Shown here in pieces: positions 2,942 to 58,262 of a DNA stretch of 64,000 bases. Under the pieces are notes generated by a model. It was not told the DNA's origin and searched no databases. It saw only the letters and a list, made by a program, of their open reading frames with translations. Position 1 is the first letter of the stretch, and each line of letters opens with the position of its first letter. Source of the stretch: a bacterium (GTDB lineage Bacteria > Bacillota > Clostridia > Lachnospirales > Lachnospiraceae); NCBI GenBank assembly GCA_963631525.1, contig CAVGQQ010000002.1:35843-99842 (forward strand), in the 5' to 3' direction. The translations under genes and the position numbers were made by a program.

Positions 2942-4216
2942 TTAAGGAAGCAGTTTGTCCAAAACACTGATACAGAAATCAATCTGCTCCTTTGTCACAA
3001 TGCAAGGGGCGATAAAACGAAGGACGTTGGAGTACGTTCCACATTTCAGGAGAATCAAGCCTTCGTCAACGGCTTTGTGCATGGTCTCGGCACAGAGGGC
3101 AGTATCAGGCGCATTTCCTTCCTTTACAAGCTCGATGGCAAGCATCAGACCGATACCACGCACATCTCCGATACAGGAATGCTTTTTCTGCAATGCAAGT
3201 AATTGCTCCTTAAAGTAAATACCCATAGAAGCAGCATTGTCGAGAGCACCATGTTCCAGAACCCCGATGCTTGCAAGTCCGGCTGCACAGGAGACCGGAT
3301 TACCGCCGAAGGTACCTCCATGAGCACCGGAAGGCCACTGTTCCATGATTTCTTTTTTGGCAATGACTGCGGAAAGAGGGAAACCAGCGCCTAATGCCTT
3401 TGCAGTAGACATGATATCCGGCTTTACACCGAAATGTTCATAGGCAAACATTTTACCGGTACGTCCAAATCCAGTTTGTACCTCATCAAAGATGAGCATG
3501 ATTCCATGTGTGTCACAGACATTTCTTACATATTGAACAAATTCCACAGGGGGAACGATATACCCGCCTTCGCCCTGAATTGGTTCCATAATGATTGCTG
3601 CAACCATAGATGGATCTACTAACTGTGAAAACAGGGAATCAAACTGATCAAAATACTGCTTTGGACAATGCACCCCATCGTTTGTGTATGGAGAACGGAA
3701 CAGATTCGGATATTCCAGAAAATAGGTGCTTGGAACCATCGGTTCATAATTTTTGCGGTAGGCAGAATTTGATCCGGTGATGGCTGCGGTTCCCATAGTA
3801 CGTCCGTGGAAAGAACCCTTGAACGAAATGACAGCCGGACGCTTCGTCACATATTTTGCAAGCTTTAAAGCACCTTCGTTTGCTTCAGCGCCAGAATTTG
3901 AGAAATACACCATAGTATCTCCACCGGTCAGTGCAACAAGCTTTTCTGCCAGTTCCACATAGGATTCGTAGTAGACCACATTATGTCCTGCATGAATCAG
4001 CTTATCAATCTGTTCTTTTGCAGCTTTGACTACAGCCGGATGATTGTGCCCCAGATTACATACGGCAACACCACTGGCGAAGTCGAGATATTTTTTCCCG
4101 TCCTCTCCATATAAATAAGAACCTTCTCCTTTGACAACGCCAAGTGTCGTGTAACGACCGGCAACCGGCGGCATAACTTTACAACAGCGTTCATACATGG
4201 TTTCGTTTGTTTCCAT
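2942..4216 (-). CDS. Class-III PLP aminotransferase (4-aminobutyrate/ornithine aminotransferase family)
   Basis: YLDFASG, NSGAEANE, SFHGRT, EPIQGEGG, DEVQTGFGRTG, AKALGAG, HGGTFGGNP. Confidence 0.93.
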   Translation of the reverse strand: METNETMYERCCKVMPPVAGRYTTLGVVKGEGSYLYGEDGKKYLDFASGVAVCNLGHNHPAVVKAAKEQIDKLIHAGHNVVYYESYVELAEKLVALTGGDTMVYFSNSGAEANEGALKLAKYVTKRPAVISFKGSFHGRTMGTAAITGSNSAYRKNYEPMVPSTYFLEYPNLFRSPYTNDGVHCPKQYFDQFDSLFSQLVDPSMVAAIIMEPIQGEGGYIVPPVEFVQYVRNVCDTHGIMLIFDEVQTGFGRTGKMFAYEHFGVKPDIMSTAKALGAGFPLSAVIAKKEIMEQWPSGAHGGTFGGNPVSCAAGLASIGVLEHGALDNAASMGIYFKEQLLALQKKHSCIGDVRGIGLMLAIELVKEGNAPDTALCAETMHKAVDEGLILLKCGTYSNVLRFIAPCIVTKEQIDFCISVLDKLLP

Positions 4217-4269
4217 ATAAATACACCTCCTAATGGTAAATTGTTTATGGCTTGTATTATAACACGATA

Positions 4270-42675: not shown

Positions 42676-42870
42676 TTATTGCTTTTGGGATAATAAAGCC
42701 TTTAAATGTGCAATTTCTTCCTTTGATTGCTGTAATTCAATTTCCGCCTGTTTTTGTTTGGCTTCCGCTTGTTTCCGTATCTCTTTTTCCTGAGCGACCT
42801 GATCCTGCAGTTCTTCAATCATGTATTTCACTGTATTTTTATCTGCAATTTTTAATGCCTCTGAAAACAT
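42676..42870 (-). CDS. Putative nested in-frame small protein (Rpn-S-like, 64 aa coiled coil)
   Basis: GAGGAGGTGGT SD (42875-42885, minus strand) just before an in-frame ATG at 42870. Confidence 0.55.
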   Translation of the reverse strand: MFSEALKIADKNTVKYMIEELQDQVAQEKEIRKQAEAKQKQAEIELQQSKEEIAHLKALLSQKQ

Positions 42871-43722
42871 GTGAACCACCTCCTCAGGTTTATTTACATA
42901 TGAACTCATTTCATGGAATATTGTTTTACTCCATGAATAGCGTCTGATTACGCGTTCTACATCTGCCATTGTCTCTGCGGTCAGGATAGAGAGCCAGCCT
43001 CCCAAGTTATTCATGTCGCAATTAACAGTTTCCAAAGTATCTGAATTCTTATCATTAGTATATACGTTTTGGCAGAATACATCAAGTGCAATTAAAAAGT
43101 ATTCCTGTAGCAGATCCATCTTAAGCCCAGTGTCAAAACGGGTTTTGCCGTGATGAATGTATGCGCCATGCAATAGTGGATCTTTAAAATTGGTACCTGT
43201 TTTTTCGTAAAGAACGATGGTGTAAACTTTCTTCATGTCAGAATACTTAAATCCCGTTTTCTTCTTCAATCGGGTGTATTCGCGGAGCAGCAGGTCAGAA
43301 GAGTAGCAGGATATGCGTTCTGCTGTGAACATGTATGGAAGTTTCTGAATTTCAACATTGGCAAGTGAGCCATCACTTAACCGGACAATGATATCCATAA
43401 TCAGCAGGGAATCAACAGATATGGCAGTATTTTCTGATGGAAGAATTTGTTCCACTACAACGGATTCGCCAAGAATTGCGCTAAGCAGATGAGACAGCCA
43501 ATCTGGATGTCTGTCTGGGTGAAACATACATTTGAAGAATGGATCGTAAGTGAGCGGCATTGTTTTCTTGCCGGTCATGTAATCATCGAAGCGTTTCTTC
43601 CATGTTTCGTCGAGCAAGATATAGTCTGCATACAGATTATTCTGTTTCATAGCTTCTTCAAGTTTGTTTACAGTTGGATAGAATGTGTTCAGTGGTTCCT
43701 TGGTTACTGTTTCATTAGTCAT
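42676..43722 (-). CDS. Rpn-like PD-(D/E)XK nuclease family transposase
   Basis: LTYDPFFK.MF, IMDIIVRL.DGSLANVEIQK, VYTIVLYE, C-terminal coiled coil. Confidence 0.8.
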   Translation of the reverse strand: MTNETVTKEPLNTFYPTVNKLEEAMKQNNLYADYILLDETWKKRFDDYMTGKKTMPLTYDPFFKCMFHPDRHPDWLSHLLSAILGESVVVEQILPSENTAISVDSLLIMDIIVRLSDGSLANVEIQKLPYMFTAERISCYSSDLLLREYTRLKKKTGFKYSDMKKVYTIVLYEKTGTNFKDPLLHGAYIHHGKTRFDTGLKMDLLQEYFLIALDVFCQNVYTNDKNSDTLETVNCDMNNLGGWLSILTAETMADVERVIRRYSWSKTIFHEMSSYVNKPEEVVHMFSEALKIADKNTVKYMIEELQDQVAQEKEIRKQAEAKQKQAEIELQQSKEEIAHLKALLSQKQ

Positions 43723-44071: not shown

Positions 44072-44752
44072 ATGAATTACAGACACGAACTAAAGCATGA
44101 GATAACTTATGGCGATATGCTTTGTCTGCGCGGACGCCTGAATGCGGTCGCACATGCAGACGCACACGGCGATCATGGAAAATATCACATTCGCAGCCTG
44201 TATTTTGACAATCTGTACGATAAAGCGTTTATGGAGAAGATTAACGGCGTGAACTGCAGGGAGAAATACCGCCTGCGCTATTACGATGGCGATACATCTG
44301 TGATCCATCTGGAGAAAAAATCGAAGATCAACGGACTATCCTGCAAACAGAGTGTGCAGGTGACTGCAGAGCAGGTGACACAGATTCTGCGTGGCGATGT
44401 CGCGTGGCTTCAGGAGTCAGAAGAACCACTGCTGCGGGAATTCTACACGAAGCTTGTGAATCAGGGTCTGCGACCGAAGACGATCGTCGATTATACGCGG
44501 GAAGCATTTACCTATGCGCCCGGAAATGTGCGGGTGACGATGGACTACGATATACGAACCGGCATGTATGGATTGGATTTCCTGAATGCAGAATGTGTCA
44601 CGCTTCCGATTATCGAGAATCACCGGATTCTGGAAGTGAAATGGGACGCATACCTGCCGGATTGTATCCGTAGTGCAGTCCAGCTTGGAAATCAGGGCAC
44701 GCAGAGCTTCTCGAAATATGCGGCGTGCCGGGCATATGAATATGCCGGTTAG
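44072..44752 (+). CDS. VTC (polyphosphate polymerase) domain protein
   Basis: RHELKH, IRSLYFD, REKYRLRYY, LEKKSK, VDYTREA, RVTMD, ILEVKW, FSKY. Confidence 0.92.
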   Translation: MNYRHELKHEITYGDMLCLRGRLNAVAHADAHGDHGKYHIRSLYFDNLYDKAFMEKINGVNCREKYRLRYYDGDTSVIHLEKKSKINGLSCKQSVQVTAEQVTQILRGDVAWLQESEEPLLREFYTKLVNQGLRPKTIVDYTREAFTYAPGNVRVTMDYDIRTGMYGLDFLNAECVTLPIIENHRILEVKWDAYLPDCIRSAVQLGNQGTQSFSKYAACRAYEYAG

Positions 44753-44800
44753 GAACAACAGATAAAAAGAGAATGACAGGAAGAAAAAAGGAGGAACCCT

Positions 44801-45469
44801 ATGGGATTTGGAGATATTTTTAAGTCAAGTTTTTTGGAGAATATAGCGAGCGTGAGTATTCTGGATATGGTGATTGCACTGGTGCTTGCATTTGGAATCG
44901 GTATGTTTATTTTCTTTGTCTATAAGAAGACGTACTCCGGTGTGATGTATGCGCCGGGATTTGGTGTGACGCTGGTCGCACTCACGATGATCACAACCGT
45001 TGTGATCTTAGCCGTAACCTCGAACGTCGTGTTGTCACTTGGTATGGTCGGTGCACTTTCAATCGTGCGTTTCCGTGCGGCAATCAAAGATCCGCTTGAT
45101 ATCGCATTTTTGTTCTGGTCGATTGCAGTCGGCATCGTGCTTGCGGCAGGTATGCTTCCACTTGCACTGATCGGAAGTATTTTCATTGGCGTGATGCTTC
45201 TCGTATTTGTCAACCGGAAATCACATGTACATCCATACATTCTGATCGTACAGTGTGACGGACACGACAGCGAGGTGAAGGTGCGCGAGTTCATGGAGAA
45301 GCAGGTGAAAAAATGCGTAGTCAAAAGCAAGGTCGCACAGCCGGGACATGTGGAGCTGAATCTGGAGGTGCGCATGAAGGATGACAATGCAGACTTTGTA
45401 AATATTTTGTCAGAAATGGATGGCGTGAGCAGTGCATCGCTTGTCAGCTTCAACGGAGAGTATTTGTAG
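44801..45469 (+). CDS. DUF4956 family membrane protein
   Basis: SLGMVGALSIVRFR..IKDP; canonical partner of the VTC gene. Confidence 0.9.
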   Translation: MGFGDIFKSSFLENIASVSILDMVIALVLAFGIGMFIFFVYKKTYSGVMYAPGFGVTLVALTMITTVVILAVTSNVVLSLGMVGALSIVRFRAAIKDPLDIAFLFWSIAVGIVLAAGMLPLALIGSIFIGVMLLVFVNRKSHVHPYILIVQCDGHDSEVKVREFMEKQVKKCVVKSKVAQPGHVELNLEVRMKDDNADFVNILSEMDGVSSASLVSFNGEYL

Positions 45470-45507
45470 GCAGCGCATGGAAGAAAGAACTTTAAGGAGG
45501 TGATGCG

Positions 45508-47445
45508 ATGTCGACCAGCAAACATATTGACAAGATTTGCTGTATCATTTTGATATTTACCATTCTGATCACGGTCGTGTTCTGCAATGCGGAGAGTCTG
45601 GGCGTGAATAAGCTCCCGATTACGATGGGATATGAGAAGAAGCTGTTTGATACATCGAAGGTGCATACGATCGATATTGTGATGGACGATTGGGATTCTT
45701 TTATCGATGGCTGTGAGGACGAGGAATACGTGTCCTGTGCAGTTGTAATTGACAACGAAGCCTATAAAAATGTTGCGATCCGTGCAAAGGGCAATACATC
45801 CTTAAGCTCGGTTGCCGCTTATGGCAATGACCGGTACAGCTTCAAGATTGAGTTCGACCATTACGACAGCGGCAAAAGCTATCATGGTCTGGATAAATTA
45901 TCACTCAACAATATCATTCAGGATAATACATACATGAAGGACTACCTGTGCTACCAGATGATGGGCTATATGGGCGTGGATGCGCCGCTTTGCAGCTATG
46001 TCTGGATCACAGTTAATGGGGAAGCGTGGGGGTTGTATCTCGCAGTTGAAGGCGTGGAGGACAGCTTCTTAGAGCGAAACTACGGCACTTCATATGGAGA
46101 ACTGTATAAGCCGGATAGCCAGTCGATGGGCGGCGGTCGTGGAAATGGTGCGGATATCTCTGAGACGGAACTAGCTGAACAATTTCTGGGTGGTGACACA
46201 GCGAGTGACAGTGATGCAACTGTAGATGGACAGAAAATGCAACCACCAGATGGAGATTTCGCAGGTGGACAGGAAATGCAGCCACCGGATGGAGATTCCG
46301 CGGGTGGACAGGATATACAGAAACCAGATGGAGATTCTTCAGATGGACAGAAGATGGAACCACCGACAGGTACGGAGTCGGACGGTCAGAAAATGCAGAG
46401 ACCAGATGGTGATATGGGCGATAAGCAAGGCGGACCGGGCGGCGGCATGGGAAGTGACGATGTGTCACTCATCTATTCGGATGATGAATATAGCAGCTAC
46501 AGCAATATCTTCGATAACGCCAAGACGGATATTACCGATGAGGATAAAGACCGCCTGATCGCTTCGCTGAAGTCTCTGAATGAGAATTCAGATATCGAAG
46601 ATGTGGTAAATGTAGACGAGGTAATACGGTATTTCGTCGTACATAATTTCGTCTGCAACTTCGATAGCTATACTGGTTCGATGATACATAATTACTATCT
46701 GTACGAAGAAGATGGACAGCTTTCGATGATTCCGTGGGATTACAATCTCGCCTTTGGCGGATTCTCAGCGGGCGGCGGAGGCAGTGATTCGGCAACACAG
46801 ATGGTGAACTATCCGATCGATACACCGGTATCTGGTGGAACGGTAGATTCCCGCCCGATGCTTGCATGGATCTTTGCGGATGAGAACTACACAGAACTGT
46901 ATCACACGTATTTTGATACATTTATCTCCGAATATTTTGAAAGCGGATATTTCGAGAATCTGATCACAGAGACGGAGAACCTGATTGCTTCTTATGTGGA
47001 GCAGGATCCGACGAAATTCTGTACCTACGAAGAGTTCGAGACAGGTGTGGATACGTTGAAATCGTTCTGCCTGCTTCGGGCAGAGAGCATTCGCGGACAG
47101 TTGGATGGCACGATTCCATCCACAAGTGATGGGCAGCAGGAAGATGATTCTACACTCGTCGATGTTTCATCCATTTCCCTTACGGATATGGGAAGCATGG
47201 GACATGGCGGCGGTACACCGGGCGATGGTGACCGACCAGATATGTCGGATGAGAACGGAGGACAGACGCCGGGCGATGGCGAGCGACCGGATATGCCGGA
47301 CGAGAATGGAGGACAGATGCCGGACGATGGCAACAGACCGGATATGCCAGATGGCAATGGCGGAACACCGCCAGAACGACCGGATGGAGATAACGGACAG
47401 ATGCCGGGAGGAACTCGAACGCAGCAAAATGAAAATGAAGATTAG
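45508..47445 (+). CDS. CotH kinase family protein
   Basis: AIRAKGNTSL, SFKIEFDHY, GLDKLSLNN, GLYLAVE, DSY...HNYYLY, IPWDYNLAFG. Confidence 0.9.
   Translation: MSTSKHIDKICCIILIFTILITVVFCNAESLGVNKLPITMGYEKKLFDTSKVHTIDIVMDDWDSFIDGCEDEEYVSCAVVIDNEAYKNVAIRAKGNTSLSSVAAYGNDRYSFKIEFDHYDSGKSYHGLDKLSLNNIIQDNTYMKDYLCYQMMGYMGVDAPLCSYVWITVNGEAWGLYLAVEGVEDSFLERNYGTSYGELYKPDSQSMGGGRGNGADISETELAEQFLGGDTASDSDATVDGQKMQPPDGDFAGGQEMQPPDGDSAGGQDIQKPDGDSSDGQKMEPPTGTESDGQKMQRPDGDMGDKQGGPGGGMGSDDVSLIYSDDEYSSYSNIFDNAKTDITDEDKDRLIASLKSLNENSDIEDVVNVDEVIRYFVVHNFVCNFDSYTGSMIHNYYLYEEDGQLSMIPWDYNLAFGGFSAGGGGSDSATQMVNYPIDTPVSGGTVDSRPMLAWIFADENYTELYHTYFDTFISEYFESGYFENLITETENLIASYVEQDPTKFCTYEEFETGVDTLKSFCLLRAESIRGQLDGTIPSTSDGQQEDDSTLVDVSSISLTDMGSMGHGGGTPGDGDRPDMSDENGGQTPGDGERPDMPDENGGQMPDDGNRPDMPDGNGGTPPERPDGDNGQMPGGTRTQQNENED
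46225..46413 (+). repeat. 39-bp coding repeat x5 (DGQKMQPPDGDxx)
   Basis: Visible in both DNA and protein. Confidence 0.8.
47215..47367 (+). repeat. 51-bp coding repeat x3 (TPGDGERPDMPDENGGQ)
   Basis: Visible in both DNA and protein. Confidence 0.8.
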
Positions 47446-47495
47446 CATAAATTAGTCTGTAATCCCAGTAAATTCAACACTGAAAACGATTTCAC

Positions 47496-47530
47496 AAGAT
47501 GGTAAATCTTTCGATTTGCCATCTTTTTTT
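47496..47530 (+). terminator. Terminator of the VTC operon
   Basis: AAGATGGTAAATC-loop-GATTTGCCATCTT followed by Ts. Confidence 0.75.
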
Positions 47531-47582
47531 ATGCATGTAACGGAAATTAAATGACGAAAATTCCAAGGATTATAACATATGC

Positions 47583-47598
47583 GTGAAATGGTTTTCAC
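47583..47598. promoter_or_regulatory. LacI/cre-like palindrome GTGAAA-TGGT-TTTCAC upstream of metK
   Basis: 6-bp inverted arms; related TGAAAACGATTTCA at 47481-47494. Confidence 0.4.
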
Positions 47599-47675
47599 AT
47601 TCACAGATTTATTTTTGTGCCTGACGCGATTATGATAGCCCTAACAAAAAACAAAGAGAAAAGGAGTACAGGCGT

Positions 47676-48869
47676 ATGGGAAAATTATTTACATCAGAAT
47701 CAGTAACAGAAGGACATCCGGATAAGATTGCGGATCAGATCTCCGATGCAATTTTAGATGCATTACTCGAGCAGGACCCTTATTCCAGAGTGGCAGCAGA
47801 AACGACAGTTGCAACGGGTATTGCATTAGTCGTTGGTGAGATCACAACAAAGGCATATGTCGATATTGCGAAAATAGCAAGAGACACAATCCGGGAGATC
47901 GGCTACGTGAATAACGTGGATGGATACAACGCAAATTCGATTGCGGTGCTTACATCCATTGATGAGCAGTCAGCTGATATTGCACTTGGTGTGGATCAGG
48001 CGTTTGAGTCAAAACAGGATGGTGCAACTGAGGATTTTGGAACAGGAGCAGGAGATCAGGGAATTATCTTTGGATATGCAACCGATGAGACACCGGAATA
48101 TCTTCCACCGGCAATTTCGTTTGCACACAGACTGACAAGACAGCTCACAAAAGTAAGAAAGGATGGCACGCTTCCATATCTCCGACCGGATGGAAAGTCA
48201 CAGGTGACAGTGGAATTTGGCGAAGACGGACAGACAGTAAAGCGGATTCATACAATTGTTATTTCAACCCAGCATGCGGAGGAGATAAGTCTGGAGCAGA
48301 TCCGGAAGGATGTGATTGAATATGTGATCAAGCCGGTGATACCTGCGGAGCTTCTGGATGAAGATACCATTTATTATGTGAATCCAACCGGGAGATTTGT
48401 AATCGGAGGACCTCAGGGCGATTCCGGACTGACCGGAAGAAAAATCATTGTGGATACCTATGGTGGAACCGGACGTCATGGTGGCGGTGCTTTCTCCGGA
48501 AAAGATCCAACAAAGGTCGATCGTTCTGCCGCTTATGCAGCCAGATGGGTAGCAAAGAATCTAGTCGCTGCAGGCGTGGCGAAGAAAATTGAGCTGGAGC
48601 TCGCGTATGCGATTGGTGTGGCGAAGCCGGTGTCGATAGCAGTGGAAACATTTGGAACGGGGGTAATCAGTGATGAAAAAATTGTGGAGATTATTGAAAA
48701 TGTATTCGATCTTCGACCAGCAGCGATCATTGATGCGCTGGATCTTAGAAGACCAATCTATAAGCAGACTGCAGCGTATGGACATTTTGGGCGCAATGAT
48801 ATCGACTTACCTTGGGAACACCTGGATAAGGTAGCGGAGATAAAGGCATATGAAGAAAAAAATATTTGA
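47676..48869 (+). CDS. metK: S-adenosylmethionine synthetase
   Basis: [43 protein letters not shown]. Confidence 0.98.
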
Positions 48870-49605
48870 GAAAATAGAACAGATTCTTCCGATCATCCTG
48901 CTTTTGCTCATCTGGTATCTGGTAACGGAACGGGAAGTCTATAACAGCCTTCTGTTCCCAAAGCTGTCGCAGGTGTGGGAGTCCGCATTTCAGAAGATAA
49001 AGGATGGAACGCTTCTGCTTGCGATTGGAATCAGTCTGCGGCGCGTGTTGCTTGGCTATATCGTTGCAGCACTTGTCGGAATTACACTGGGAATTGTGAT
49101 TGGCTTGTCGAAGCATATGTACAGAATCACGGATCTGATCATTCAGATCCTGAAGCCGATTCCGCCGATCGCATGGATTCCACTTACGATTCTGTGGATG
49201 GGGATCGGGGAAAATTCAAAGGTCTTTCTGATATTTTTAGGTGGATTTTTCACGATATTGCTGAATACACTTGATGGAATCCGCTATACCGATGCGAAGC
49301 TTCTGGAGGTTGCACGGGTGATGGAGACACCGAAGCCAAAATATATTTTTCGGCTTGTGATACCTGCAGCGTTTCCGTCAATATTTACAGGGCTGCGCGT
49401 GGCGATGGGAACCTGTTGGACGTGTGTGGTTGCAGCGGAGCTGGTAGCTTCGAGCAGCGGCGTAGGATATATGATTTCCAATGCGCGGAATTTCGGACAG
49501 CTGGATGTCGTGATTGTAGGAATGATAGCGATTGGTATCGTAGGAAAAATCATGGACGTTATCTTAAAACTGGTCGAGAGGAGGGTGCTTAGTTGGAATT
49601 ATTAG
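48850..49605 (+). CDS. Sulfonate/nitrate-type ABC permease (SsuC/TauC-like)
   Basis: [24 protein letters not shown]; overlaps the end of metK by 20 nt. Confidence 0.92.
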
Positions 49606-50363
49606 GGAAAAATTATGTGAATGTCGAAGGCATCAGCAAAAGCTTCGGAGACACATGCATTTTGTCGGATATTCAGTTTCATGTATCAAAAGGCGAATTT
49701 ATATGTATCGTCGGGAGCAGCGGCTGTGGGAAAAGCACTCTTCTACGGAGTCTGTCCGGGTTAGATACGGATTATGAGGGACAGATTCTGGTAGATAAAA
49801 AAGAAGTGACAAAGCCGACGAAAAAAATCGGTTATATCTTTCAGGAGAACCGGTTGTTTCCGTGGATGACTGTGGAGGAAAATGTAGGCTTTTCTCTGGA
49901 TAGCGGTAGCAGGGAAGAAAGAAGAAATAAGGTGCGCGAGGCAATCCGGATGGTTGGACTGGAACCGGCTGCAAAGCAATATCCGAAGACACTATCCGGA
50001 GGTATGGCGCAACGCGCCAACATAGCGCGGACACTTGTGAACAAGCCAGAGGTTTTGTTGTTGGACGAACCATTTGGCGCGCTCGATGCTTTTACGAAAA
50101 TCAATCTTCAGGAGAAATTATGTGAGATCCGGAGTGTGGAAGGAACGACGATGATCATGGTGACACATGATATCGAAGAGGCGGTGTACCTTGCCGACCG
50201 GATCATCATTTTAGATAAAAATCCTGGTGTTATAAAGAAAATTGTGAACGTGGATCTGCCGAGACCAAGGGATCGGAATAGCAACTATTTTAATGATCTG
50301 CGCAAAGAGATTTATGGATACTTCTTCGAGACGAAAGAAATCGTGGAAGATTACAATATTTAG
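49593..50363 (+). CDS. Sulfonate/nitrate-type ABC ATP-binding protein (SsuB/TauB-like)
   Basis: GSSGCGKST, FQENRLFPW, LSGGMAQR, LDEPFGALDAFT; TTG start with GAGGAGG SD. Confidence 0.93.
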   Translation: MELLGKNYVNVEGISKSFGDTCILSDIQFHVSKGEFICIVGSSGCGKSTLLRSLSGLDTDYEGQILVDKKEVTKPTKKIGYIFQENRLFPWMTVEENVGFSLDSGSREERRNKVREAIRMVGLEPAAKQYPKTLSGGMAQRANIARTLVNKPEVLLLDEPFGALDAFTKINLQEKLCEIRSVEGTTMIMVTHDIEEAVYLADRIIILDKNPGVIKKIVNVDLPRPRDRNSNYFNDLRKEIYGYFFETKEIVEDYNI

Positions 50364-50372
50364 CAGGAGGAA

Positions 50373-51374
50373 ATGCATATGAGAAAAATGAGAAAATTAT
50401 TCGCATTGATGACGGGAGCGGTTTTGCTGGTAGGTATGATTTCCGGATGTGGCAAGGCTGAGAAAGCAGTGGATAAGGCGCAGACACAGACGTTAAATCT
50501 GGCGATTCAGCCAGCCGTCGGATTTCTGCCATTATATATTATGCGGGATGAGCAATTGATCGAGAAGGCGCTCGCAGATGCTGGCTATGATGTGAAAGTG
50601 ACCTATACAGAATACGAATCTGGTCCACCGGAAAACGAAGCATTTGCGGCAGGGCTTGTAGATATCGGAATCATGGGAAATGTACCGGCGCTGTCAGGAA
50701 TTGCATCCGGACAGGACAGAAAGCTGATTGGGATTGCATATAACGGAGAGGCGACGGAGGCGATTATCGTGCCAAAGGATTCAGATATAAAAACGGTTGC
50801 AGATTTGAAGGGGAAGAAGATTGGATTGGTAGTCGGCTCCATCGCGCAGAATCTGGTATCAGCAGTATTCGAGGAAAATAATCTGAAATTCAGTGACGTA
50901 GAATTTGTGAATCTGTCTGCCGGAGAGCAGCCGCAGGCACTTGCAAATGGACAGGTCGATGCGGTAGCGGTATGGGAGCCTACGATTTCCAAACTGACGG
51001 CAGATGGAAGTAATGTGGTACTGGCAGATGGAACCGGCGTATTTCTGGGTGAGAATCCGATTATCGCAAGGGGCGAATACATAGAGAAGAATCCGGAGAT
51101 CGTTCAGATCTATATGGATACCTATAAGAAAGCAGCAGAGCTGCTGGCAGCGGACACGGAAAAATATGCGGAGCAATACAGTGATTATTTTGGATTGGAT
51201 ACATCCATTATACGTTCGGCTCTGGCAAATGCGAAGCAACCGATCGCAATTACAGATGCGGATGTGACAGATCTTCAGAAGACGGCAGATTTCCTCAAGA
51301 GTGAAAATCTGGCAACAAAGGAGATCAAGGTGGAAGACTATGTTGATTTCACATTTAGTGAAGGCTTGAAGTAA
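50373..51374 (+). CDS. Aliphatic sulfonate-type ABC substrate-binding lipoprotein (SsuA-like)
   Basis: Lipobox ISGC, ESGPP.NEA..AG.VDIG, DLKGKKIG, GQVDAVAVWEP. Confidence 0.88.
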   Translation: MHMRKMRKLFALMTGAVLLVGMISGCGKAEKAVDKAQTQTLNLAIQPAVGFLPLYIMRDEQLIEKALADAGYDVKVTYTEYESGPPENEAFAAGLVDIGIMGNVPALSGIASGQDRKLIGIAYNGEATEAIIVPKDSDIKTVADLKGKKIGLVVGSIAQNLVSAVFEENNLKFSDVEFVNLSAGEQPQALANGQVDAVAVWEPTISKLTADGSNVVLADGTGVFLGENPIIARGEYIEKNPEIVQIYMDTYKKAAELLAADTEKYAEQYSDYFGLDTSIIRSALANAKQPIAITDADVTDLQKTADFLKSENLATKEIKVEDYVDFTFSEGLK

Positions 51375-51385
51375 GGAGGCAGTCT

Positions 51386-52666
51386 ATGGTAGAAGCAAGA
51401 GACAAAGAATGGCGGAAAAAAGAACCATCTTTAAGGGAAGTAACACAGAAATATCCGGACATGCCGGCAAGCTGGATCTTAAAAGCAGATATCCAGAGAC
51501 GGGGACTCTGGTATGCACCGAATGCAGTTGCACAGATTGATCCGGCGGTGCACGCAGTCCATCAGGATGGAAAAGATCTGTTCCGTAACAGTGTGGATTT
51601 TGTACCGGAAGGATTGATCTGGAATGATGGAAGCTATCTGATTGCGAACTTTGATTTTGACCAGGAGCATCCGGCAAGAGATCCATATATTGTTGATTTT
51701 GTCGATGGAAAATATGTGATTATAGATGAAGGTGATATTCTCTCGGATTTTCAGGGATTTTGGGAGAAGCCGGATTTCTATAACAAAAAAGCATCCAACG
51801 GAGAACCGTTAAGCACTTATGTGCAGGCAAGACCGCAGCGTATAGAAGTCAGTGTAAATAAATACTGCCATTTCTGGGATTGCCCGAAGGAAGGCTGCAA
51901 ATACTGCCCGCTTTCCCCATCCTTCAAAGCGAGTGGAGCAACGGAGGAACAAAGCGAGCTTCAATATATGCGGGAGGCTTTCGAGGAGGCATTTAAGCAG
52001 AAGGGCAGATTTACGCAGGTTCTGTTGACTGGTGGTTCGATTCTGTCCGGTGAGGAATTATTTGATGATGAACTGGAGAGCTATATCCGGGTGTTGAAGA
52101 TGATAGGCGAGTTCTTCCCGGGAAGAAGGTTTCCATCGCAGTTGATCTCGTCTGCATTCAGTGAGCGACAATTAGAGCGGCTGTATAATGAAACGGGACT
52201 CACGATGTACACGACAGACATTGAGGTATTTGACAAGGAAAAATTCAACTGGATCTGCTCGGGAAAAGCGAATAAGCTTGGGTATGACGAGTGGAAACGC
52301 CGGTTAATTGCAGCGGTTGATATATTTGGACAGGGGAATGTAACATCTGGTGCCGTGCTTGGAACCGAGCTTGCGACACCGCATGGATTTATCTCGGAGG
52401 ATGAAGCATATGAGCATGTTGTCGAGGAAGCAGAGAGCATCATATCGCACGGCATCGCGCTCGCTGCCAATATATGGCGACCGACGCCGAAATCAATCTT
52501 CCAGAATCAGGTTTCTCCGACGCTTGATTATTTTGTAAGGGTGTACAGGGAGTTTGACCGCTTACAGCGAAAATACATCACGAATCCATATAACGATGAT
52601 TTCCGGCGATGCGGTGCACATGTAGGACTGGATCTGATGCGGACATATGAGGAGGTGCAGCGATGA
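51386..52666 (+). CDS. Radical SAM protein with non-canonical Cys motif
   Basis: CHFWDCPKEGCKYC (CX9CX2C or CX4CX2C), LTGGS (GGE-equivalent), DIEVFD..F..ICSGK. Confidence 0.8.
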   Translation: MVEARDKEWRKKEPSLREVTQKYPDMPASWILKADIQRRGLWYAPNAVAQIDPAVHAVHQDGKDLFRNSVDFVPEGLIWNDGSYLIANFDFDQEHPARDPYIVDFVDGKYVIIDEGDILSDFQGFWEKPDFYNKKASNGEPLSTYVQARPQRIEVSVNKYCHFWDCPKEGCKYCPLSPSFKASGATEEQSELQYMREAFEEAFKQKGRFTQVLLTGGSILSGEELFDDELESYIRVLKMIGEFFPGRRFPSQLISSAFSERQLERLYNETGLTMYTTDIEVFDKEKFNWICSGKANKLGYDEWKRRLIAAVDIFGQGNVTSGAVLGTELATPHGFISEDEAYEHVVEEAESIISHGIALAANIWRPTPKSIFQNQVSPTLDYFVRVYREFDRLQRKYITNPYNDDFRRCGAHVGLDLMRTYEEVQR

Positions 52667-53118
52667 GTGTGTTAAATAAAGAATTGACAGAGTGGATCAA
52701 TGATCCGACGTCCTTGAAATCACTGGCAACCGTAAGTCGGGAAGGAGTTCCGCATGTGGCATATAAGGGAAGCCTGCATGTGGAGGATGATCATATCGTA
52801 TTTTATGATCTGATCCAGAGTTCCCAGACCAATAAAAATCTGGTGCATGCAATCTGGTTTAACGGAACTGTCGCTGTCAATATTTTGACAGTGGATAAGC
52901 GGAGCTTCTTAATCCTTGGAAAACCGGTGAAATCTGTGACGGCAGGGAAAGGCTTTGAGAAAGTGTATGTAAAGATGCAGGAAGAAAAAGGAACCGATGT
53001 GGAACTGTCTGCAATCTGGTATATCGAGCCTTTGCAGATTCGGGAGGAAACCTATGCGGCAAGACGGGATGAGGAAGAACACAAATATCCATATATCCGC
53101 CATCTGGACAGAGTGTGA
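52663..53118 (+). CDS. Pyridoxamine 5'-phosphate oxidase-like FMN-binding protein
   Basis: LATVSREGVPHV, SQTNKNL; ATGA overlap with the radical SAM stop. Confidence 0.8.
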   Translation: MSVLNKELTEWINDPTSLKSLATVSREGVPHVAYKGSLHVEDDHIVFYDLIQSSQTNKNLVHAIWFNGTVAVNILTVDKRSFLILGKPVKSVTAGKGFEKVYVKMQEEKGTDVELSAIWYIEPLQIREETYAARRDEEEHKYPYIRHLDRV

Positions 53119-53209
53119 GAATGTGCTTGCAGATTTTACCAAAATCGTCTACAATAATACCATACTAAACAAGTAGGATAAATAGGAATACAAAAAGAAG
53201 GGATGTAGG

Positions 53210-54283
53210 ATGTCTGTAATACAAATCGCGAAAATGGCTGGAACCTCGCCGGCGACGGTTTCGAGAATACTGAATAATCCGGAGTATCATTGTTCAGATC
53301 CTGCAGTCCGGGATAAGGTGTGGAAGGCTGCAATGGAGCTTAATTATGTGCCAAATGAAGCAGCCCGCAATCTGAAACGGGGAACGGAAATCGCGCAGGA
53401 TAAAGTGCGCTATATACAGGTGCTAATGACACGGACTGAGCAAAGCAACACAGATCCTTTCTTTACAGAGGTGTTGCGTGTGGTGGAATCGGAGATCCAC
53501 AGGAATTCCTGCATATTATCCCATGTCTGGTATATGTCTGTCTTTTCGAACGACAAACAGTGCCGGTTAAATAATCTGAATCATCTGGTGGAAGATCTGC
53601 ATCAGGAAACCGAAGGAAAAAGTGATGGCCTGATCGTGATCGGACGATGCAACAAGGAGGCTTTGCGTTATCTGAAGCAGCGGTTTAAGAATCTGGTGTC
53701 GATCAACCGGAATTCCACGAACCGGGAGATCGATGAGGTAACCTGCGATGGCAGAAAAATAGCGACAACAGCGGTGGAGTATCTGGTTGAAAAGGGACAC
53801 AACGATATTGGTTATGTCGGGGAATGTCACGGCGAGTCCCGTTATAAAGGATATGTGGATACCCTGATGCGGCATGAATTAGAACTTAATCCAGCTTATA
53901 TATTTGAGACTAAACAGACGGAAAAAGCAGGGTTTGAGATCATGGAAAAGATACTAAAATCCGACGATATTCCAACTGCAATCTACTGTGCCAATGATAT
54001 TACTGCGATCGGTATGCTCAAAGCATTGGAGAAAATCAAGAAGAAATATTTTAATATTTCTATCATTTCCAGTGATGATATTGAACAGGCGCAGTTTACA
54101 AAACCGATGCTTACGACGGTTGCCCTGCCAAAGGTGGAGATGGGGAGATTCGCGGTATATCTGCTCATAGACCGAATCAATGGAAACCATGCTTCTGTCA
54201 CGACGATGGAGCTCGAAGGACGGCTGGTTATCCGTGAGAGCTGTGTCGACATTCAGGATAGCTGGTGGAATTATTCGATTTAA
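53210..54283 (+). CDS. LacI family transcriptional regulator
   Basis: IAKMAGTSPATVSRILN, YVPNEAARNL, PTAIYCAND, PMLTTV. Confidence 0.93.
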   Translation: MSVIQIAKMAGTSPATVSRILNNPEYHCSDPAVRDKVWKAAMELNYVPNEAARNLKRGTEIAQDKVRYIQVLMTRTEQSNTDPFFTEVLRVVESEIHRNSCILSHVWYMSVFSNDKQCRLNNLNHLVEDLHQETEGKSDGLIVIGRCNKEALRYLKQRFKNLVSINRNSTNREIDEVTCDGRKIATTAVEYLVEKGHNDIGYVGECHGESRYKGYVDTLMRHELELNPAYIFETKQTEKAGFEIMEKILKSDDIPTAIYCANDITAIGMLKALEKIKKKYFNISIISSDDIEQAQFTKPMLTTVALPKVEMGRFAVYLLIDRINGNHASVTTMELEGRLVIRESCVDIQDSWWNYSI

Positions 54284-54339
54284 GATTCAAACTTATAATA
54301 GAAAAGTCCAGAATGTAAATCAAAGCAACAATTTAAGTG

Positions 54340-54394
54340 AATCAACCGGAAAAACTGTGAATGAAAAGACCAGTCGTTTCCGGTTGATTTTTTT
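54340..54394 (+). terminator. Putative terminator hairpin
   Basis: AATCAACCGGAAA...TTTCCGGTTGATT followed by Ts. Confidence 0.6.
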
Positions 54395-54465
54395 AGGTTT
54401 CTATTGTATGTTTGACATAATTTGAAGGCAGGAATCTCATAATACAATAGAAAGAGAGTGAAGCA

Positions 54466-55137
54466 ATGAATATATTTGATGTCGTAGGACCTGTGATGGT
54501 CGGACCGTCGAGCTCCCATACCGCAGGTGCTGTAAAAATAGGATATATCAGTCGGAAGCTGCTGGGCGAACAGCCGGTTTCCGCGCGGATTTTGTTATAT
54601 GGAAGCTTTCTGACAACCGGAAAAGGACATGGTACACGGAAAGCACTTGTGGCTGGTTTGCTTGGAATGCAGCCGGACGATGCGCGGATTCCGCAGGCGT
54701 TGGAGCTTGCCGAAGAACAGGGCATACAGATCGAATTTGGAGAGGCGCAGTTAAAGGAAGCGCACCCAAACACGGCGCAGCTTTTTCTGCAGGGGCAGGA
54801 TGGCAGAAGCCTGGAGATCATCGGGCAGTCACTGGGCGGCTCCCGGATTAATATTGCTGAGATCGATGGAATCGAGACGAATTTCTCCGGTGATTATCCG
54901 ACACTTGTTGTACACAATCAGGATCAGCCGGGACACGTGGCAGAAGTAACGTCGATGCTTTCGCACAAAGGCGTGAACATTGCGTACATGCAGTTGTACC
55001 GTTCCAGCCGTGGCGGAGAGGCGGTTATGGTCGTGGAATGTGATCAGGAAATTCCGAAGGAGGGCATTGACTGGTTGAAGAAAGTCGAGGGTGTGAAGAA
55101 GGTGACATACCTTAGTATAGGAGGCGATGCGAAATGA
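54466..55137 (+). CDS. sdaAB: L-serine dehydratase, Fe-S dependent, beta subunit
   Basis: GPVMVGPSSSHTAGA, TGKGHGT, HPNT, C-terminal ACT domain. Confidence 0.95.
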   Translation: MNIFDVVGPVMVGPSSSHTAGAVKIGYISRKLLGEQPVSARILLYGSFLTTGKGHGTRKALVAGLLGMQPDDARIPQALELAEEQGIQIEFGEAQLKEAHPNTAQLFLQGQDGRSLEIIGQSLGGSRINIAEIDGIETNFSGDYPTLVVHNQDQPGHVAEVTSMLSHKGVNIAYMQLYRSSRGGEAVMVVECDQEIPKEGIDWLKKVEGVKKVTYLSIGGDAK

Positions 55138-56000
55138 TAACGTATCATTCGATTCAGGATATATTGGAGCTGTGCGAGAAAGAACAGATGGAGTTCTGGC
55201 AGGTGATCGAACACGCGGATATGGAAGAACGTGCGGTAACAGAAGAGGCTTCCTATGCGAAGATGCAGAGCATGTATGAGGCGATGCGGCATGCGGATGC
55301 AACCTATGATGCAAAGCTTACATCAGCCTCCGGTCTGGTTGGCGGCGATGGCGAGAAGCTTCGCGCATACAACGAAGCGGGGAAGAATCTCTGCGGCGAC
55401 TTCTTAGGTCTGGTGATGGAGAAGGCAATCAAGATGGCAGAAGGAAATGCATGCATGCGCCGGATCGTTGCGGCGCCGACGGCGGGTTCGTGCGGCGTGA
55501 TTCCGGCAGTGTTCCTGACGGCAGAGGAGAAGCTTGCGTGTTCGGAAGAACAGATGGTGGCTGCGATGTACATTTCCGCAGGGGTAGGTGCCGTGATTGC
55601 GGAAAATGCTTCGATTGCCGGGGCGTCTGGCGGCTGTCAGGCAGAGATCGGTTCTGCATCTGCGATGGCAGCGGCAGGGCTATGCTTCCTGCAGGGAGGC
55701 ACGAACGAGATGATTGCAAATGCGGCCGCGCTGGCGCTTAAAAATATGCTTGGCCTTGCCTGTGATCCGGTCTGCGGGTTAGTGGAAGTGCCATGTGTGA
55801 AACGGAATGTCGCCGGAGCTGTCAACGCGGTAAGTGCGGCACAGCTATCTTTGGCAGGAATCAAGAGCGCGATTCCTGTGGATGAAGTGATCGATGCAAT
55901 GCGTAGAATCGGAAATGAAATGTCTCCGAACATAAAAGAAACGGGTCAGGGTGGACTTGCAACCACCCCGACCGCGATTCAAATAGGAAAGAGTTTATAA
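55134..56000 (+). CDS. sdaAA: L-serine dehydratase, Fe-S dependent, alpha subunit
   Basis: APTAGSCG, GGCQAEIG, GLACDPV.GLVEVPCVKRN. Confidence 0.95.
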   Translation: MITYHSIQDILELCEKEQMEFWQVIEHADMEERAVTEEASYAKMQSMYEAMRHADATYDAKLTSASGLVGGDGEKLRAYNEAGKNLCGDFLGLVMEKAIKMAEGNACMRRIVAAPTAGSCGVIPAVFLTAEEKLACSEEQMVAAMYISAGVGAVIAENASIAGASGGCQAEIGSASAMAAAGLCFLQGGTNEMIANAAALALKNMLGLACDPVCGLVEVPCVKRNVAGAVNAVSAAQLSLAGIKSAIPVDEVIDAMRRIGNEMSPNIKETGQGGLATTPTAIQIGKSL

Positions 56001-56021: not shown

Positions 56022-58262
56022 TTAAGGCTGTGTGACAGCATAATCCGAAAAGCTTGTGGTCGATTCGGCGTCACTTGTATCAACGGAGGTACTGTAGCTG
56101 TCGACGGTGATCGTATAGCTGCTTGTACCCTGTACATAGACTGTGCCATCGGTACCGACAATCGTAACGGTCTTGCCGCTTGCATCGGTGATCGTTCCGG
56201 CACAGTAGAGATTTGTCAGTGTGCTGTCTCCAGTTACTGTCCAGGTGCTTCCTTTTTCGATATAGACATTGCAGTAGCCGTCGCCGCCATTTCCGGCATA
56301 GGTCTCATCGTCGGTAATGGCACCTGTGAGTGTGCTTTCACCGGTCATGTAGAAATCAAGCTGGCTGATGGAATCCCAGATCACGTCGCCTTCCATAGCC
56401 TGATCGATGGCAGTGAATTTACAATCGGCACCGTTGGAACCGGAAGTTCCCCAGCCACGCTGGTTGTTGTTGCCGGTACAACGAAGGAAGAAGTCGTTGT
56501 CATCCGCATAGGTGATGTCTACATCATTTAAGATAAATGTGGACTCGGTATTGGTCGTGTAGAACATACCGCCATTTTTCGCAGTCAGGCTGCCGCCGTC
56601 CATCTCAAATGTACTGTTACCAACTTCTGAATCACCAGACATGCTCTGGTATAAAATCACATTCCAAGTGCAGTCGTTCTGACTGTCGTCTGACATATTT
56701 CCGGTCAGATCGGTATCAAACAAACGAAGTGAATTTAATCCCTCGATACAGACCGCTTCGGAACCATTTGCGGTAAGCGTTGCATCGTTGATGGCGATAT
56801 CAGCAGTGCTGTATACGGCAGGGGAACCCGTTCCGTTTGAGGTATAGGTTCCGCCATCGACAACCATCGTTCCGCCGCCACGATCGCTACGGATAGCGGC
56901 AGAGGAGTTACCGTCTGTCTCTACATTGAGATCCCATGCGTAGAGGGTTCCACCGCCAGCCGCGTGGATACCACCGGCTGTATTTCCGGTAGTCTTAATT
57001 GTGGAATCGGAGATGTAGACCGTACCGTCACCGTAGGCAAATGCGCCAGCAGCACCGTCGGCATCGGTTGTGATCGTACTGTTCGTAATCGTTGTCTGTC
57101 CGTCGGTTGTAAGGATTGCTGCACCGACACCATAGAAGCTGGAATTATCGCCGCCGCTGCTTTCTTCGGAAGATCTTGTGACGGTAATGTTATTCAGCTT
57201 TACATTTGCGCCATCGTACACATGGATGGCGTTTTCGTCGGTGCCTGTGGACTCAAATGTCTCGCCGTCCACGTCAGCATCGGTTGTATATTCCGAGACA
57301 GCATCGTAGCTTTCCACTCCACCGGAGTTTCCGCCGCCCGGCTGTCCCGGAGCACCTCCACCAGCATTTCCATTCGAAATCACAATGACGGTTACGGTTC
57401 CGCCATCATCGAAGGTTACCTGTATTGTGTCACCGACTTGGATATCTGTCAGGGATGCGTCGGTGGAAGTTGCCATGTCACCACCCGGAGCATTACCGGA
57501 AGGAGCTTCGCCGTCTGGCATTTCCGGAGGCGTGTTGCTGTCAGAATTGTTATCGGAATTGCTGTCACCAGACTGCCCACCGTTACCAGAAGGGGCTTCG
57601 CCATCTGGTTTCTCCGGAGGCGTGTTGCTGTCGGAACTGCTGTCATCAGACTGTCCGCCATTATCAGAAGGTGCTTCACCATCTGGTTTCTCCGGAGGCG
57701 TGTTGCTGTCGGAACTGCTGTCATCAGACTGTCCGCCATTATCAGAAGGTGCTTCACCATCTGGTTTCTCCGGAGGCGTGTTGCTGTCGGAACTGCTGTC
57801 ATCAGACTGTCCGCCATTATCAGAAGGAGCTTCGCCATTCGGCATTTCCGGAGGTGTGTTGCTGTCTGAACTGTTATCACCAGACTGTCCGCCGTTATCG
57901 GAAGGAGCTTCACCATCCGGCATCTCCGGTGGAGTATTGGAACTGTCATCGCCAGACATTTCTGGTGGCTGTCCCATGCCCTCGCGGGTAATCTCTACAT
58001 CATCATTTACGGTAAAGGAGATGTCATCCTCTTCGCCTTCCGGTGTCATGGAAATCGTATCACCATCAATCTCGGTTACCTCACCGGAGATTGTCTGTCC
58101 TGCATAGCTGTTTCCTTCCTTGACTGCCTCCGTCGGTGTTGCCTCACTGGTTGTTGTCGATTCTGTTTTATTTGCACATCCGCCAAGCAGGGCAGTTGCA
58201 AGCATCGTTACTGTTACAAGTGGTAAAATGGATTTTTTCTTCATAAAATCACGTCCTTTCAA
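56022..58262 (-). CDS. Lipoprotein with acidic Pro/Gly repeats and a C-terminal beta-helix (adhesin/carbohydrate-binding-like) domain
   Basis: Lipobox LGGC; SFYGVGAAIL, SAAIRSDRGGG, SPAVYST, WTVTGDSTLTNL beta-helix-type repeats. Confidence 0.75.
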   Translation of the reverse strand: MKGRDFMKKKSILPLVTVTMLATALLGGCANKTESTTTSEATPTEAVKEGNSYAGQTISGEVTEIDGDTISMTPEGEEDDISFTVNDDVEITREGMGQPPEMSGDDSSNTPPEMPDGEAPSDNGGQSGDNSSDSNTPPEMPNGEAPSDNGGQSDDSSSDSNTPPEKPDGEAPSDNGGQSDDSSSDSNTPPEKPDGEAPSDNGGQSDDSSSDSNTPPEKPDGEAPSGNGGQSGDSNSDNNSDSNTPPEMPDGEAPSGNAPGGDMATSTDASLTDIQVGDTIQVTFDDGGTVTVIVISNGNAGGGAPGQPGGGNSGGVESYDAVSEYTTDADVDGETFESTGTDENAIHVYDGANVKLNNITVTRSSEESSGGDNSSFYGVGAAILTTDGQTTITNSTITTDADGAAGAFAYGDGTVYISDSTIKTTGNTAGGIHAAGGGTLYAWDLNVETDGNSSAAIRSDRGGGTMVVDGGTYTSNGTGSPAVYSTADIAINDATLTANGSEAVCIEGLNSLRLFDTDLTGNMSDDSQNDCTWNVILYQSMSGDSEVGNSTFEMDGGSLTAKNGGMFYTTNTESTFILNDVDITYADDNDFFLRCTGNNNQRGWGTSGSNGADCKFTAIDQAMEGDVIWDSISQLDFYMTGESTLTGAITDDETYAGNGGDGYCNVYIEKGSTWTVTGDSTLTNLYCAGTITDASGKTVTIVGTDGTVYVQGTSSYTITVDSYSTSVDTSDAESTTSFSDYAVTQP
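57493..57932 (-). repeat. 78-bp coding tandem repeat, about 6 copies (PPEKPDGEAPSDNGGQSDDSSSDSNT)
   Basis: Central copies are near-identical at DNA level. Confidence 0.9.

Follow-up and report, generated by a model that had tools for sequence, protein, structure and literature searches.

The 64,000-nt stretch analysed here (the window; positions 35,843 to 99,842 of contig CAVGQQ010000002.1, from a Lachnospiraceae genome) carries a six-gene operon that combines a S-adenosylmethionine (SAM) synthetase gene, metK, with a sulfonate-type ATP-binding cassette (ABC) importer, a variant radical SAM enzyme and a small split-barrel protein. This operon may well serve the oxygen-independent use of sulfonate sulfur, with the radical SAM enzyme as candidate desulfonase. 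The reading frames and their junctions lie as described in the initial annotation, which was made from the sequence alone: six tightly coupled genes are led by metK and, from there to the split-barrel gene, overlap by 20 nt, overlap by 13 nt, are separated by 9 and 11 nt, and overlap by 4 nt (ATGA). A terminator-like hairpin sets the operon apart from the upstream gene, and the start of the binding protein is possibly the second ATG, at nt 50379. No SAM riboswitch or T-box was found by Rfam in nt 47300-54500, just two sub-threshold chance matches, which agrees with the earlier remark that no SAM riboswitch is visible before metK. What that description overlooked is a lacI-type gene following the operon, a pair of operator-like sites and a regulatory box (Table 1).

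Table 1. Features of the operon and its control region, with positions in the window.
Feature	Position	Strand	Evidence or remark
Intrinsic terminator-like hairpin that closes off the cotH-like gene upstream	47496..47525	+	13-pair stem, T tail
Distal LacI-type operator-like palindrome	47481..47494	.	operator pattern search
Proximal LacI-type operator-like site	47584..47597	.	10 nt from its end to the predicted -35 hexamer
Predicted promoter: weak -35 TTTATT, 17-nt spacer, -10 TATGAT	47608..47636	+	absent from simple promoter scan
metK, second copy, operon-specific clade	47676..48869	+	TIGR01034, 581 bits > 309
ABC permease, SsuC/TauC type	48850..49605	+	PF00528
ABC ATPase, SsuB/NrtD type	49593..50363	+	TTG start
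Lipoprotein substrate-binding protein, SsuA family	50373..51374	+	TIGR01728, 206 > 163.5
Variant radical SAM enzyme	51386..52666	+	NF045502, 170 > 125; CX9CX2C, invariant C291, D404-R407-C409-H412
Split-barrel (PNPOx/HupZ-like) partner, predicted enzyme subunit	52663..53118	+	fold, predicted complex, fused forms
Box common to cysK, metY, metN and sulfate operon (putative CymR site), before lacI	53158..53181	.	
LacI-family regulator gene, probable operon regulator	53210..54283	+	domain/family profiles; adjacency; co-occurrence with operators

The module is conserved as a neighbourhood. Among 20 related loci, a full-length MetK is encoded in 18 (plus one contig-edge fragment), the split-barrel partner and the binding protein in 19 each, and the permease and ATPase in 18 each; gene order is shuffled, and the absences fall mostly on short contigs. 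None of the observations that the initial annotation had named as telling against its proposal, as far as they are accessible to sequence analysis, was encountered. An independent sample of the phylum comprised 401 genomes, 15 of which score above the NF045502 cut-off. The other genomes of this sample that have the window subfamily (5/5) carry the importer, and at ten NF045502 loci of other clades (nine genomes) the partner, MetK and the Ssu permease are all missing. The subfamily is patchy, being found in 6 of 301 family genomes, so that the ecological weight of the module is probably modest. Several genomes have two or three tandem paralogues. A plasmid search returned two distant Streptomyces relatives, and the one examined has no importer or metK nearby.

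The radical SAM enzyme was recognised only by NF045502 (variant_rSAM), and Pfam PF04055 gave no match to it. Its structural model (predicted local distance difference test, pLDDT, 90.5) has a radical SAM barrel fold, for which Foldseek returned LipA/BioB (E 3e-8) and a VIA structure comparison HydG (Z 16.2, root-mean-square deviation 3.9, 247 residues aligned); the fold neighbours HydG, LipA, HydE and NosL are 11-18% identical to it. PDB sequence searches found no close solved relative, and a search of the ESM Atlas found merely unnamed or generic clusters. On its cysteine motif and modelled barrel, the protein is a member of the radical SAM superfamily. The non-canonical motif reported previously, CHFWDCPKEGCKYC, is present, with C166 as its second cysteine. 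In an alignment of the query and 66 sequences picked from the best 120 of 428 matches, C161, C171 and C174 are kept in 67/67, 66/67 and 67/67 rows, and the column of C166 holds mostly K, T, V or R; a cysteine stands there in just three of 113 homologues with the nine-residue spacer. C166 is thus incidental and the motif is better written CX9CX2C, the sister clades having CX8CX2C. Also invariant in all 67 aligned homologues are C291 and the C-terminal residues D404-R407-C409-H412.

The family is related to IsrB, the sole relative that has been tested genetically. According to one report (PMC11423573), Rhodobacter capsulatus requires isrB, isrHDK and ssuCAB to grow anaerobically on isethionate, and these genes suffice for such growth in a second host; this genetic link corrects the earlier statement in that glycyl radical enzymes are not the sole anaerobic precedent. 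The role of IsrB, either C-S cleavage or activation of IsrHDK, is left open by PMC11423573 and PMC13474568. The CX8CX2C motif and flanking motifs in Figure S4 of PMC11423573 match the window enzyme's family, and four proteins retrieved with the window-family profile carry the IsrB signature. Alignment of the window-family and IsrB-type profiles gave a probability of 100 (E 4.6e-40, 342 columns, 22% identity), and the window protein is 23-24% identical to IsrB-type proteins, including that of genome G715 (24%, E 4e-19). IsrB-motif proteins score 425-462 on NF045502 compared with 170 for the window enzyme, which places the latter in a peripheral subfamily.

Both systems have a radical SAM enzyme of the NF045502 type with widened cysteine spacing and a common ICxGK cysteine, together with an SsuABC-type importer and an anaerobic sulfur-assimilation context. 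They differ in that the IsrB signatures YSNEC and TGGFIPE are absent from the window enzyme, which instead has a C-terminal DxxRxCxxH motif, and in that the window system lacks NifH/D/K-like genes at the locus and includes a LacI-family regulator and a split-barrel partner, in some cases fused to the enzyme. The window genome (100% complete by markers, 189 contigs) gave no match to the nitrogenase component-1 domain (PF00148) and has no IsrB-type gene by profile A3 at 1e-60; the window system is therefore a sister of IsrBHDK rather than a member. The nitrogenase component-1 domain is missing from 18 of 29 genomes with the module.

Four Lachnospiraceae genomes with IsrB-type clusters were examined. 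In G715 (C61, L142:9641-19894) the isrBHDK-type cluster comprises the IsrB-type gene, a permease, an ATPase, a sulfatase, an operon-clade MetK and nifH/D/K-like genes, with a nucleosidase-family gene in L146, and the same genome also has a window-type module. Three of the four clusters carry a MetK of the operon clade (81-93% identical to the window's) and two a gene of the methylthioadenosine/S-adenosylhomocysteine nucleosidase family. The importer of the G570 cluster is 53/69/60% identical to that of the window, the binding protein being the component at 53%. A search of 400 genomes with an IsrB-motif protein returned just four relatives of 32-38% identity, without nitrogenase-like neighbours as judged from size and clustering. 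The clusters at L154:2155-19948 (G585:C1) and L156 (G570:C16) contain two or three paralogues of IsrB, with a separate binding protein near each, and a sulfate assimilation operon follows the G585 cluster directly. A separate observation concerns L019 (15066-17239), in which a NifB-type radical SAM gene and a nitrogenase-like gene (Mar/Nfa-like) lie a few kb past the module and cysK.

The split-barrel partner (151 residues) had been called a flavin mononucleotide (FMN)-binding protein. The fold is borne out by matches to HupZ (E 1.6e-7) and to a Desulfovibrio FMN-binding protein (E 1.3e-5), while the Pfam PNPOx_N score (24.8 bits) stays under the gathering cut-off of 28.1; an N-terminal motif common to the partner and HupZ varies among relatives. 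The label FMN-binding thus describes the fold alone, and the flavin-dependent reductant role proposed for the protein is putative. PDB sequence searches returned no close structure of the partner and no comparable enzyme-partner complex. The predicted complex of enzyme and partner, modelled without flavin, scored 0.90 against 0.00 for the best control, with at least 96% contact agreement between runs and a partner pLDDT of at least 89. The score mark is reached by 116 of 157 solved pairs and by 2 of 215 mismatched pairs, counts that apply only roughly here, as own alignments and ligands were used. On the predicted enzyme interface lie 6 of the 11 invariant partner residues (N59, W65, F66, G95, Y102 and L115), and five longer homologues have the partner domain fused at their C-terminal end (E 8e-12 to 1e-3), a count from which two short records of chimeric appearance were excluded. 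The split-barrel protein is thus predicted to be a subunit of the radical SAM enzyme. At L081:5467-10117, relatives of the enzyme and partner follow an energy-coupling factor (ECF)-type transporter in place of SsuABC, so that the clade of fused forms may use other substrates.

The description of the importer as sulfonate-type agrees with the family profiles, the binding protein clearing the SsuA cut-off of TIGR01728; the best NCBIfam matches of the permease were SaoP, TauC and SsuC, every one below cut-off. The closest solved structures to the binding protein are the SsuA proteins of E. coli and Xanthomonas (E 1e-32). Counted on the alignment, it keeps four (Q46, G84, G102 and W201) of the five pocket residues given for Xanthomonas SsuA (Gln36, Gly68, Gly86, Ser141 and Trp185) in PMC3839906.

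MetK appears dedicated to the operon. The initial annotation had asked whether the genome has another, housekeeping metK, and a copy of that type lies on C22 (65% identical to the operon copy). Wherever metK stands beside the enzyme, the genome has another copy as well (21 of 21 distinct genomes, one of these copies being a contig-end fragment and one coming from a fragmented assembly); six of the seven genomes without metK beside the enzyme have a single copy, and the second copy of the seventh sits in its isr cluster. In a tree of 47 MetK rows, 19 form an operon-copy clade (support 100/99) apart from the housekeeping copies, with members from Lachnospiraceae, an Oscillospiraceae and a Treponema; the window MetK is represented there by the 99% identical copies of L001/L002. 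Three further operon copies fall outside this clade on long, unsure branches, which suggests, and does not prove, repeated recruitment of MetK to the operon. An altered-substrate MetK was considered and dropped, the active-site motifs looking canonical by eye against E. coli motifs. In L004 (~4040-4230) and L005 (1-212), metK is separated from the predicted promoter by a stretch that includes a tRNA-like sequence.

The module is found together with genes of sulfur assimilation and with a sulfur-regulon box, in keeping with the organosulfur theme proposed for it. Neighbours in relatives include cysK, a cysE-like acetyltransferase gene, Rrf2, metY, sulfite reductase, SuyB-like and sulfolactate-dehydrogenase-like genes, and a small DUF2292/OscA-like open reading frame (ORF). 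A full assimilation operon of the window genome is on C29 (sulfate uptake, adenosine 5'-phosphosulfate reductase, CysN, sulfite reductase and sulfhydrylases). A sulfite-reductase domain is present in 25 of 28 module genomes versus 73 of 150 family genomes, sets that differ in make-up and contain non-independent kin. No glycyl radical enzyme was found among the locus genes, as previously noted, and the single PF02901 gene of the genome is on C65. In L011:9996-13472, L012:1749-8005 and L020:3875-15951, a set of sulfolactate-dehydrogenase-like, aminotransferase and threonine-synthase-like (PRK08197) genes stands beside or within the importer genes, joined in L012 and L020 by a glycerol-dehydrogenase-like gene; this set possibly represents a branch for 2,3-dihydroxypropane-1-sulfonate (DHPS), sulfolactate or cysteate. 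At L064:521-6485, genes for a double-cubane-type reductase and its activase (HGD-D, BcrAD_BadFG) and for sulfite reductase are inserted in the operon, and the reductase is a possible alternative electron supply.

The LacI-family protein is the probable regulator of the operon. A lacI-type gene is adjacent in 7 of the 20 related loci, and two operator sites about 90-120 bp apart also occur in L001-L003, L008, L009, L011 and L018. A LacI orthologue turned up for 11 of the 13 loci that have operators and for none of the eight that lack them. Genome-wide, a single site occurs in 13 of 1004 upstream regions and two sites before metK alone (the pattern was built from these loci), a distribution that makes a global CcpA site unlikely as the sole reading; within the window alone the operator matches are not above chance (16 of 100 shuffles reach three). 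In all 13 discovery loci, which were hand-picked and are partly close kin, the proximal operator ends 10 nt before the -35 hexamer and a -10 hexamer matching at 5/6 or 6/6 follows after 17 nt, against a background of 1.3% by position and 4 of 166 genome-wide matches. A simple promoter scan was near chance (19 sites versus 13.8 +/- 3.2). RNA runs, being from contigs of relatives, share at most 10% of words with the locus and are uninformative on its expression.

The box before lacI also precedes metY, metN, the sulfate operon and cysK, which lies next to the one Rrf2 gene in the genome. The final matrix, built from six sites with operon-like variants excluded, replaced a partly circular first matrix, under which the lacI site had ranked first; it ranks the held-out metN site first and the window lacI site fourth of 999 non-training upstream regions, and in 7 of 20 operon loci the region before metK has a box scoring in the top 3%. 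It is a putative CymR site, the name being taken from context: according to PMC3828012, cymR lies beside cysK in Clostridium, and ssu genes are under CymR in Bacillus. In G704 and G711, lacI orthologues stand directly before Rrf2 or Rrf2-cysK. From such sequence evidence, a CymR-type repressor would gate the LacI-family gene, the product of which would bind just upstream of the weak -35 hexamer and activate the operon. In Bacillus subtilis, the global cysteine repressor CymR gates YtlI, a local activator of an organosulfur-utilisation operon; the arrangement envisaged here is alike in having a global repressor over a local activator, and differs in that the local regulator is of the LacI family whereas YtlI is of the LysR family. 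A conserved leader motif followed by a terminator-like hairpin, absent from the window, precedes the operon in L006, L007, L016, L019, L020, L064 (before metK), L154, L157 and L057, often just past the DUF2292/OscA-like small ORF and in loci without LacI operators, IsrB-type clusters among them; it appears to be a second layer of control, acting on RNA.

The reading favoured here, somewhat better than an even bet, is that the window enzyme desulfonates sulfonates in a SAM-consuming radical reaction, for sulfur assimilation without oxygen. The earlier proposal of a radical SAM desulfonase with its own MetK is upheld as to context (the conserved module and the second metK) and the SsuA assignment, and the catalytic role carries only the leaning just given. 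In the mechanism proposed, a 5'-deoxyadenosyl radical would abstract hydrogen from C2 of an isethionate-, DHPS- or taurine-like compound, the carbon adjoining the one that bears the sulfonate. Sulfite would be expelled and the product radical quenched, either via C291 or C409, both conserved cysteines, or by one electron. Each turnover would spend one SAM, which the dedicated MetK would regenerate, and the sulfite would be taken over by the sulfite reductase, CysK and MetY that the genome encodes. Aerobic sulfonate assimilation relies on SsuABC with SsuD/SsuE and on TauABC with TauD; the window system shares the importer class and, putatively, the purpose of supplying sulfite for assimilation, and differs in having no monooxygenase or dioxygenase at the locus, an oxygen-sensitive radical SAM enzyme standing in that place. 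The elimination step is modelled on the glycyl radical sulfolyases IslA/IseG and HpsG, which act with activases and, according to PMC13450708, are proposed to expel sulfite from a 2-hydroxysulfonate by a radical route; those enzymes recycle their radical, whereas the window locus has no glycyl radical enzyme and its system appears to consume SAM.

A more detailed version, in which a stand-alone two-subunit radical SAM C-S lyase spends one SAM per sulfonate with no glycyl radical or nitrogenase-like protein, anaerobic assimilatory desulfonation is in truth catalysed by IsrB-family proteins, paralogues are each devoted to one gut sulfonate and a LacI-family activator works under CymR, is tentative and falls short of an even chance. 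If the desulfonase reading is true, it would add an oxygen-free sulfonate-sulfur route for gut and rumen Firmicutes, distinct from the respiratory glycyl-radical routes. A nitrogenase-free relative of IsrB with one small predicted subunit is a much simpler system for testing radical SAM C-S cleavage. No paper on the window subfamily was found in open-access full texts; most subscription journals lay outside that scope, leaving a modest chance of prior characterisation.

Several points weigh against the desulfonase reading. The presence of sulfate assimilation means that the operon is not the sole sulfur route of its genome, and homology to IsrB leaves the reaction unfixed, as the role of IsrB is open, it needs IsrHDK and identity is low. 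Ser141 of SsuA aligns with I157 of the binding protein (S156 adjoins), and beyond the closest clade the binding proteins of the family are 20-36% identical, several lacking the SsuA Gln or Trp; with such divergence, substrates across the family probably differ. Nitrogenase-fold genes are held by 11 of the 29 module genomes, about 7 kb away in L019, and three of the four IsrB-type clusters also hold a split-barrel gene, from another family, so that the partner is no clean swap for IsrHDK. The regulatory scheme is affected as well: a held-out operator test on 13 regions gave sites in three and a partial fit in one (L080), the box marks four of eight lacI upstream regions and is missing from the other four, it is missing in three of four stand-alone lacI orthologues, and there is none directly before the window metK (score 5.2, top 11.5%).

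Sulfur scavenging could also proceed from a sulfate ester or sulfamate, with hydrogen abstraction next to O or N giving sulfite and an aldehyde or imine. This is rather unlikely, though SsuA-type pockets hold the oxyanion mainly via backbone NH groups, the related isr cluster of G715 includes a sulfatase, and the radical SAM gene before the G704 lacI orthologue presumably resembles anaerobic sulfatase maturases. Sulfonate use is what IsrB serves, relatives have sulfonate-type neighbours (SuyB-like and sulfolactate-dehydrogenase-like), and no paper on a radical SAM enzyme cleaving sulfamates or sulfates was found in the open-access literature. It is unlikely, too, that the radical SAM protein is an activase or cofactor builder whose target is the partner or some other enzyme of the cell, in the way that IsrB may act on IsrHDK. 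Activation is listed as an open option for IsrB in PMC11423573, the tight complex predicted could be that of an enzyme with its protein substrate, and the fold neighbours include the maturases HydG, HydE and LipA. Against this, a dedicated MetK suits high SAM turnover more than one-off activation, the locus has no further conserved enzyme, and tandem paralogues each with their own partner or binding protein (L006, L007, L013, L014, L057 and L058) look like substrate-specific catalysts.

Roles outside sulfur metabolism, taken together, have only a slim chance. Catabolism of a sugar-like compound for carbon or energy, under ordinary LacI repression and with sulfur release incidental or absent, would explain the LacI-family regulator, the paired cre-like operators and the lack of a sulfur box directly before metK; it is very unlikely given a locus without downstream carbon-catabolic enzymes, the lacI orthologues before Rrf2 in G704 and G711, and the poor energy strategy that one SAM per substrate would presumably be. 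Least probable of all is that the operon salvages or remodels a cofactor precursor, of the thiamine/pyrimidine type or another (an NMT1/THI5-class ligand). The best Pfam match of the binding protein is indeed NMT1, and the enzyme fold resembles ThiH/BioB-class cofactor enzymes, but NCBIfam places the binding protein in SsuA above cut-off, no thiamine pyrophosphate riboswitch was found by Rfam in nt 47300-54500, and the 36 + 38 neighbours scanned include no thiamine genes, sulfur genes being the ones that recur.

Next after lacI come the beta and alpha genes of an L-serine dehydratase (nt 54466-56000), an adjacency kept only in the closest loci, L001-L003. The operon is flanked by a cotH-family gene with two small genes ahead of it (nt 44072-47445) and by a long low-complexity lipoprotein gene (nt 56022-58262); the cotH-family and lipoprotein products are both long, with repetitive acidic Gly/Pro-rich stretches. 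A transposase-like gene of the PD-(D/E)XK nuclease family (PF12784; nt 42676-43722) lies 4 kb upstream of the operon.

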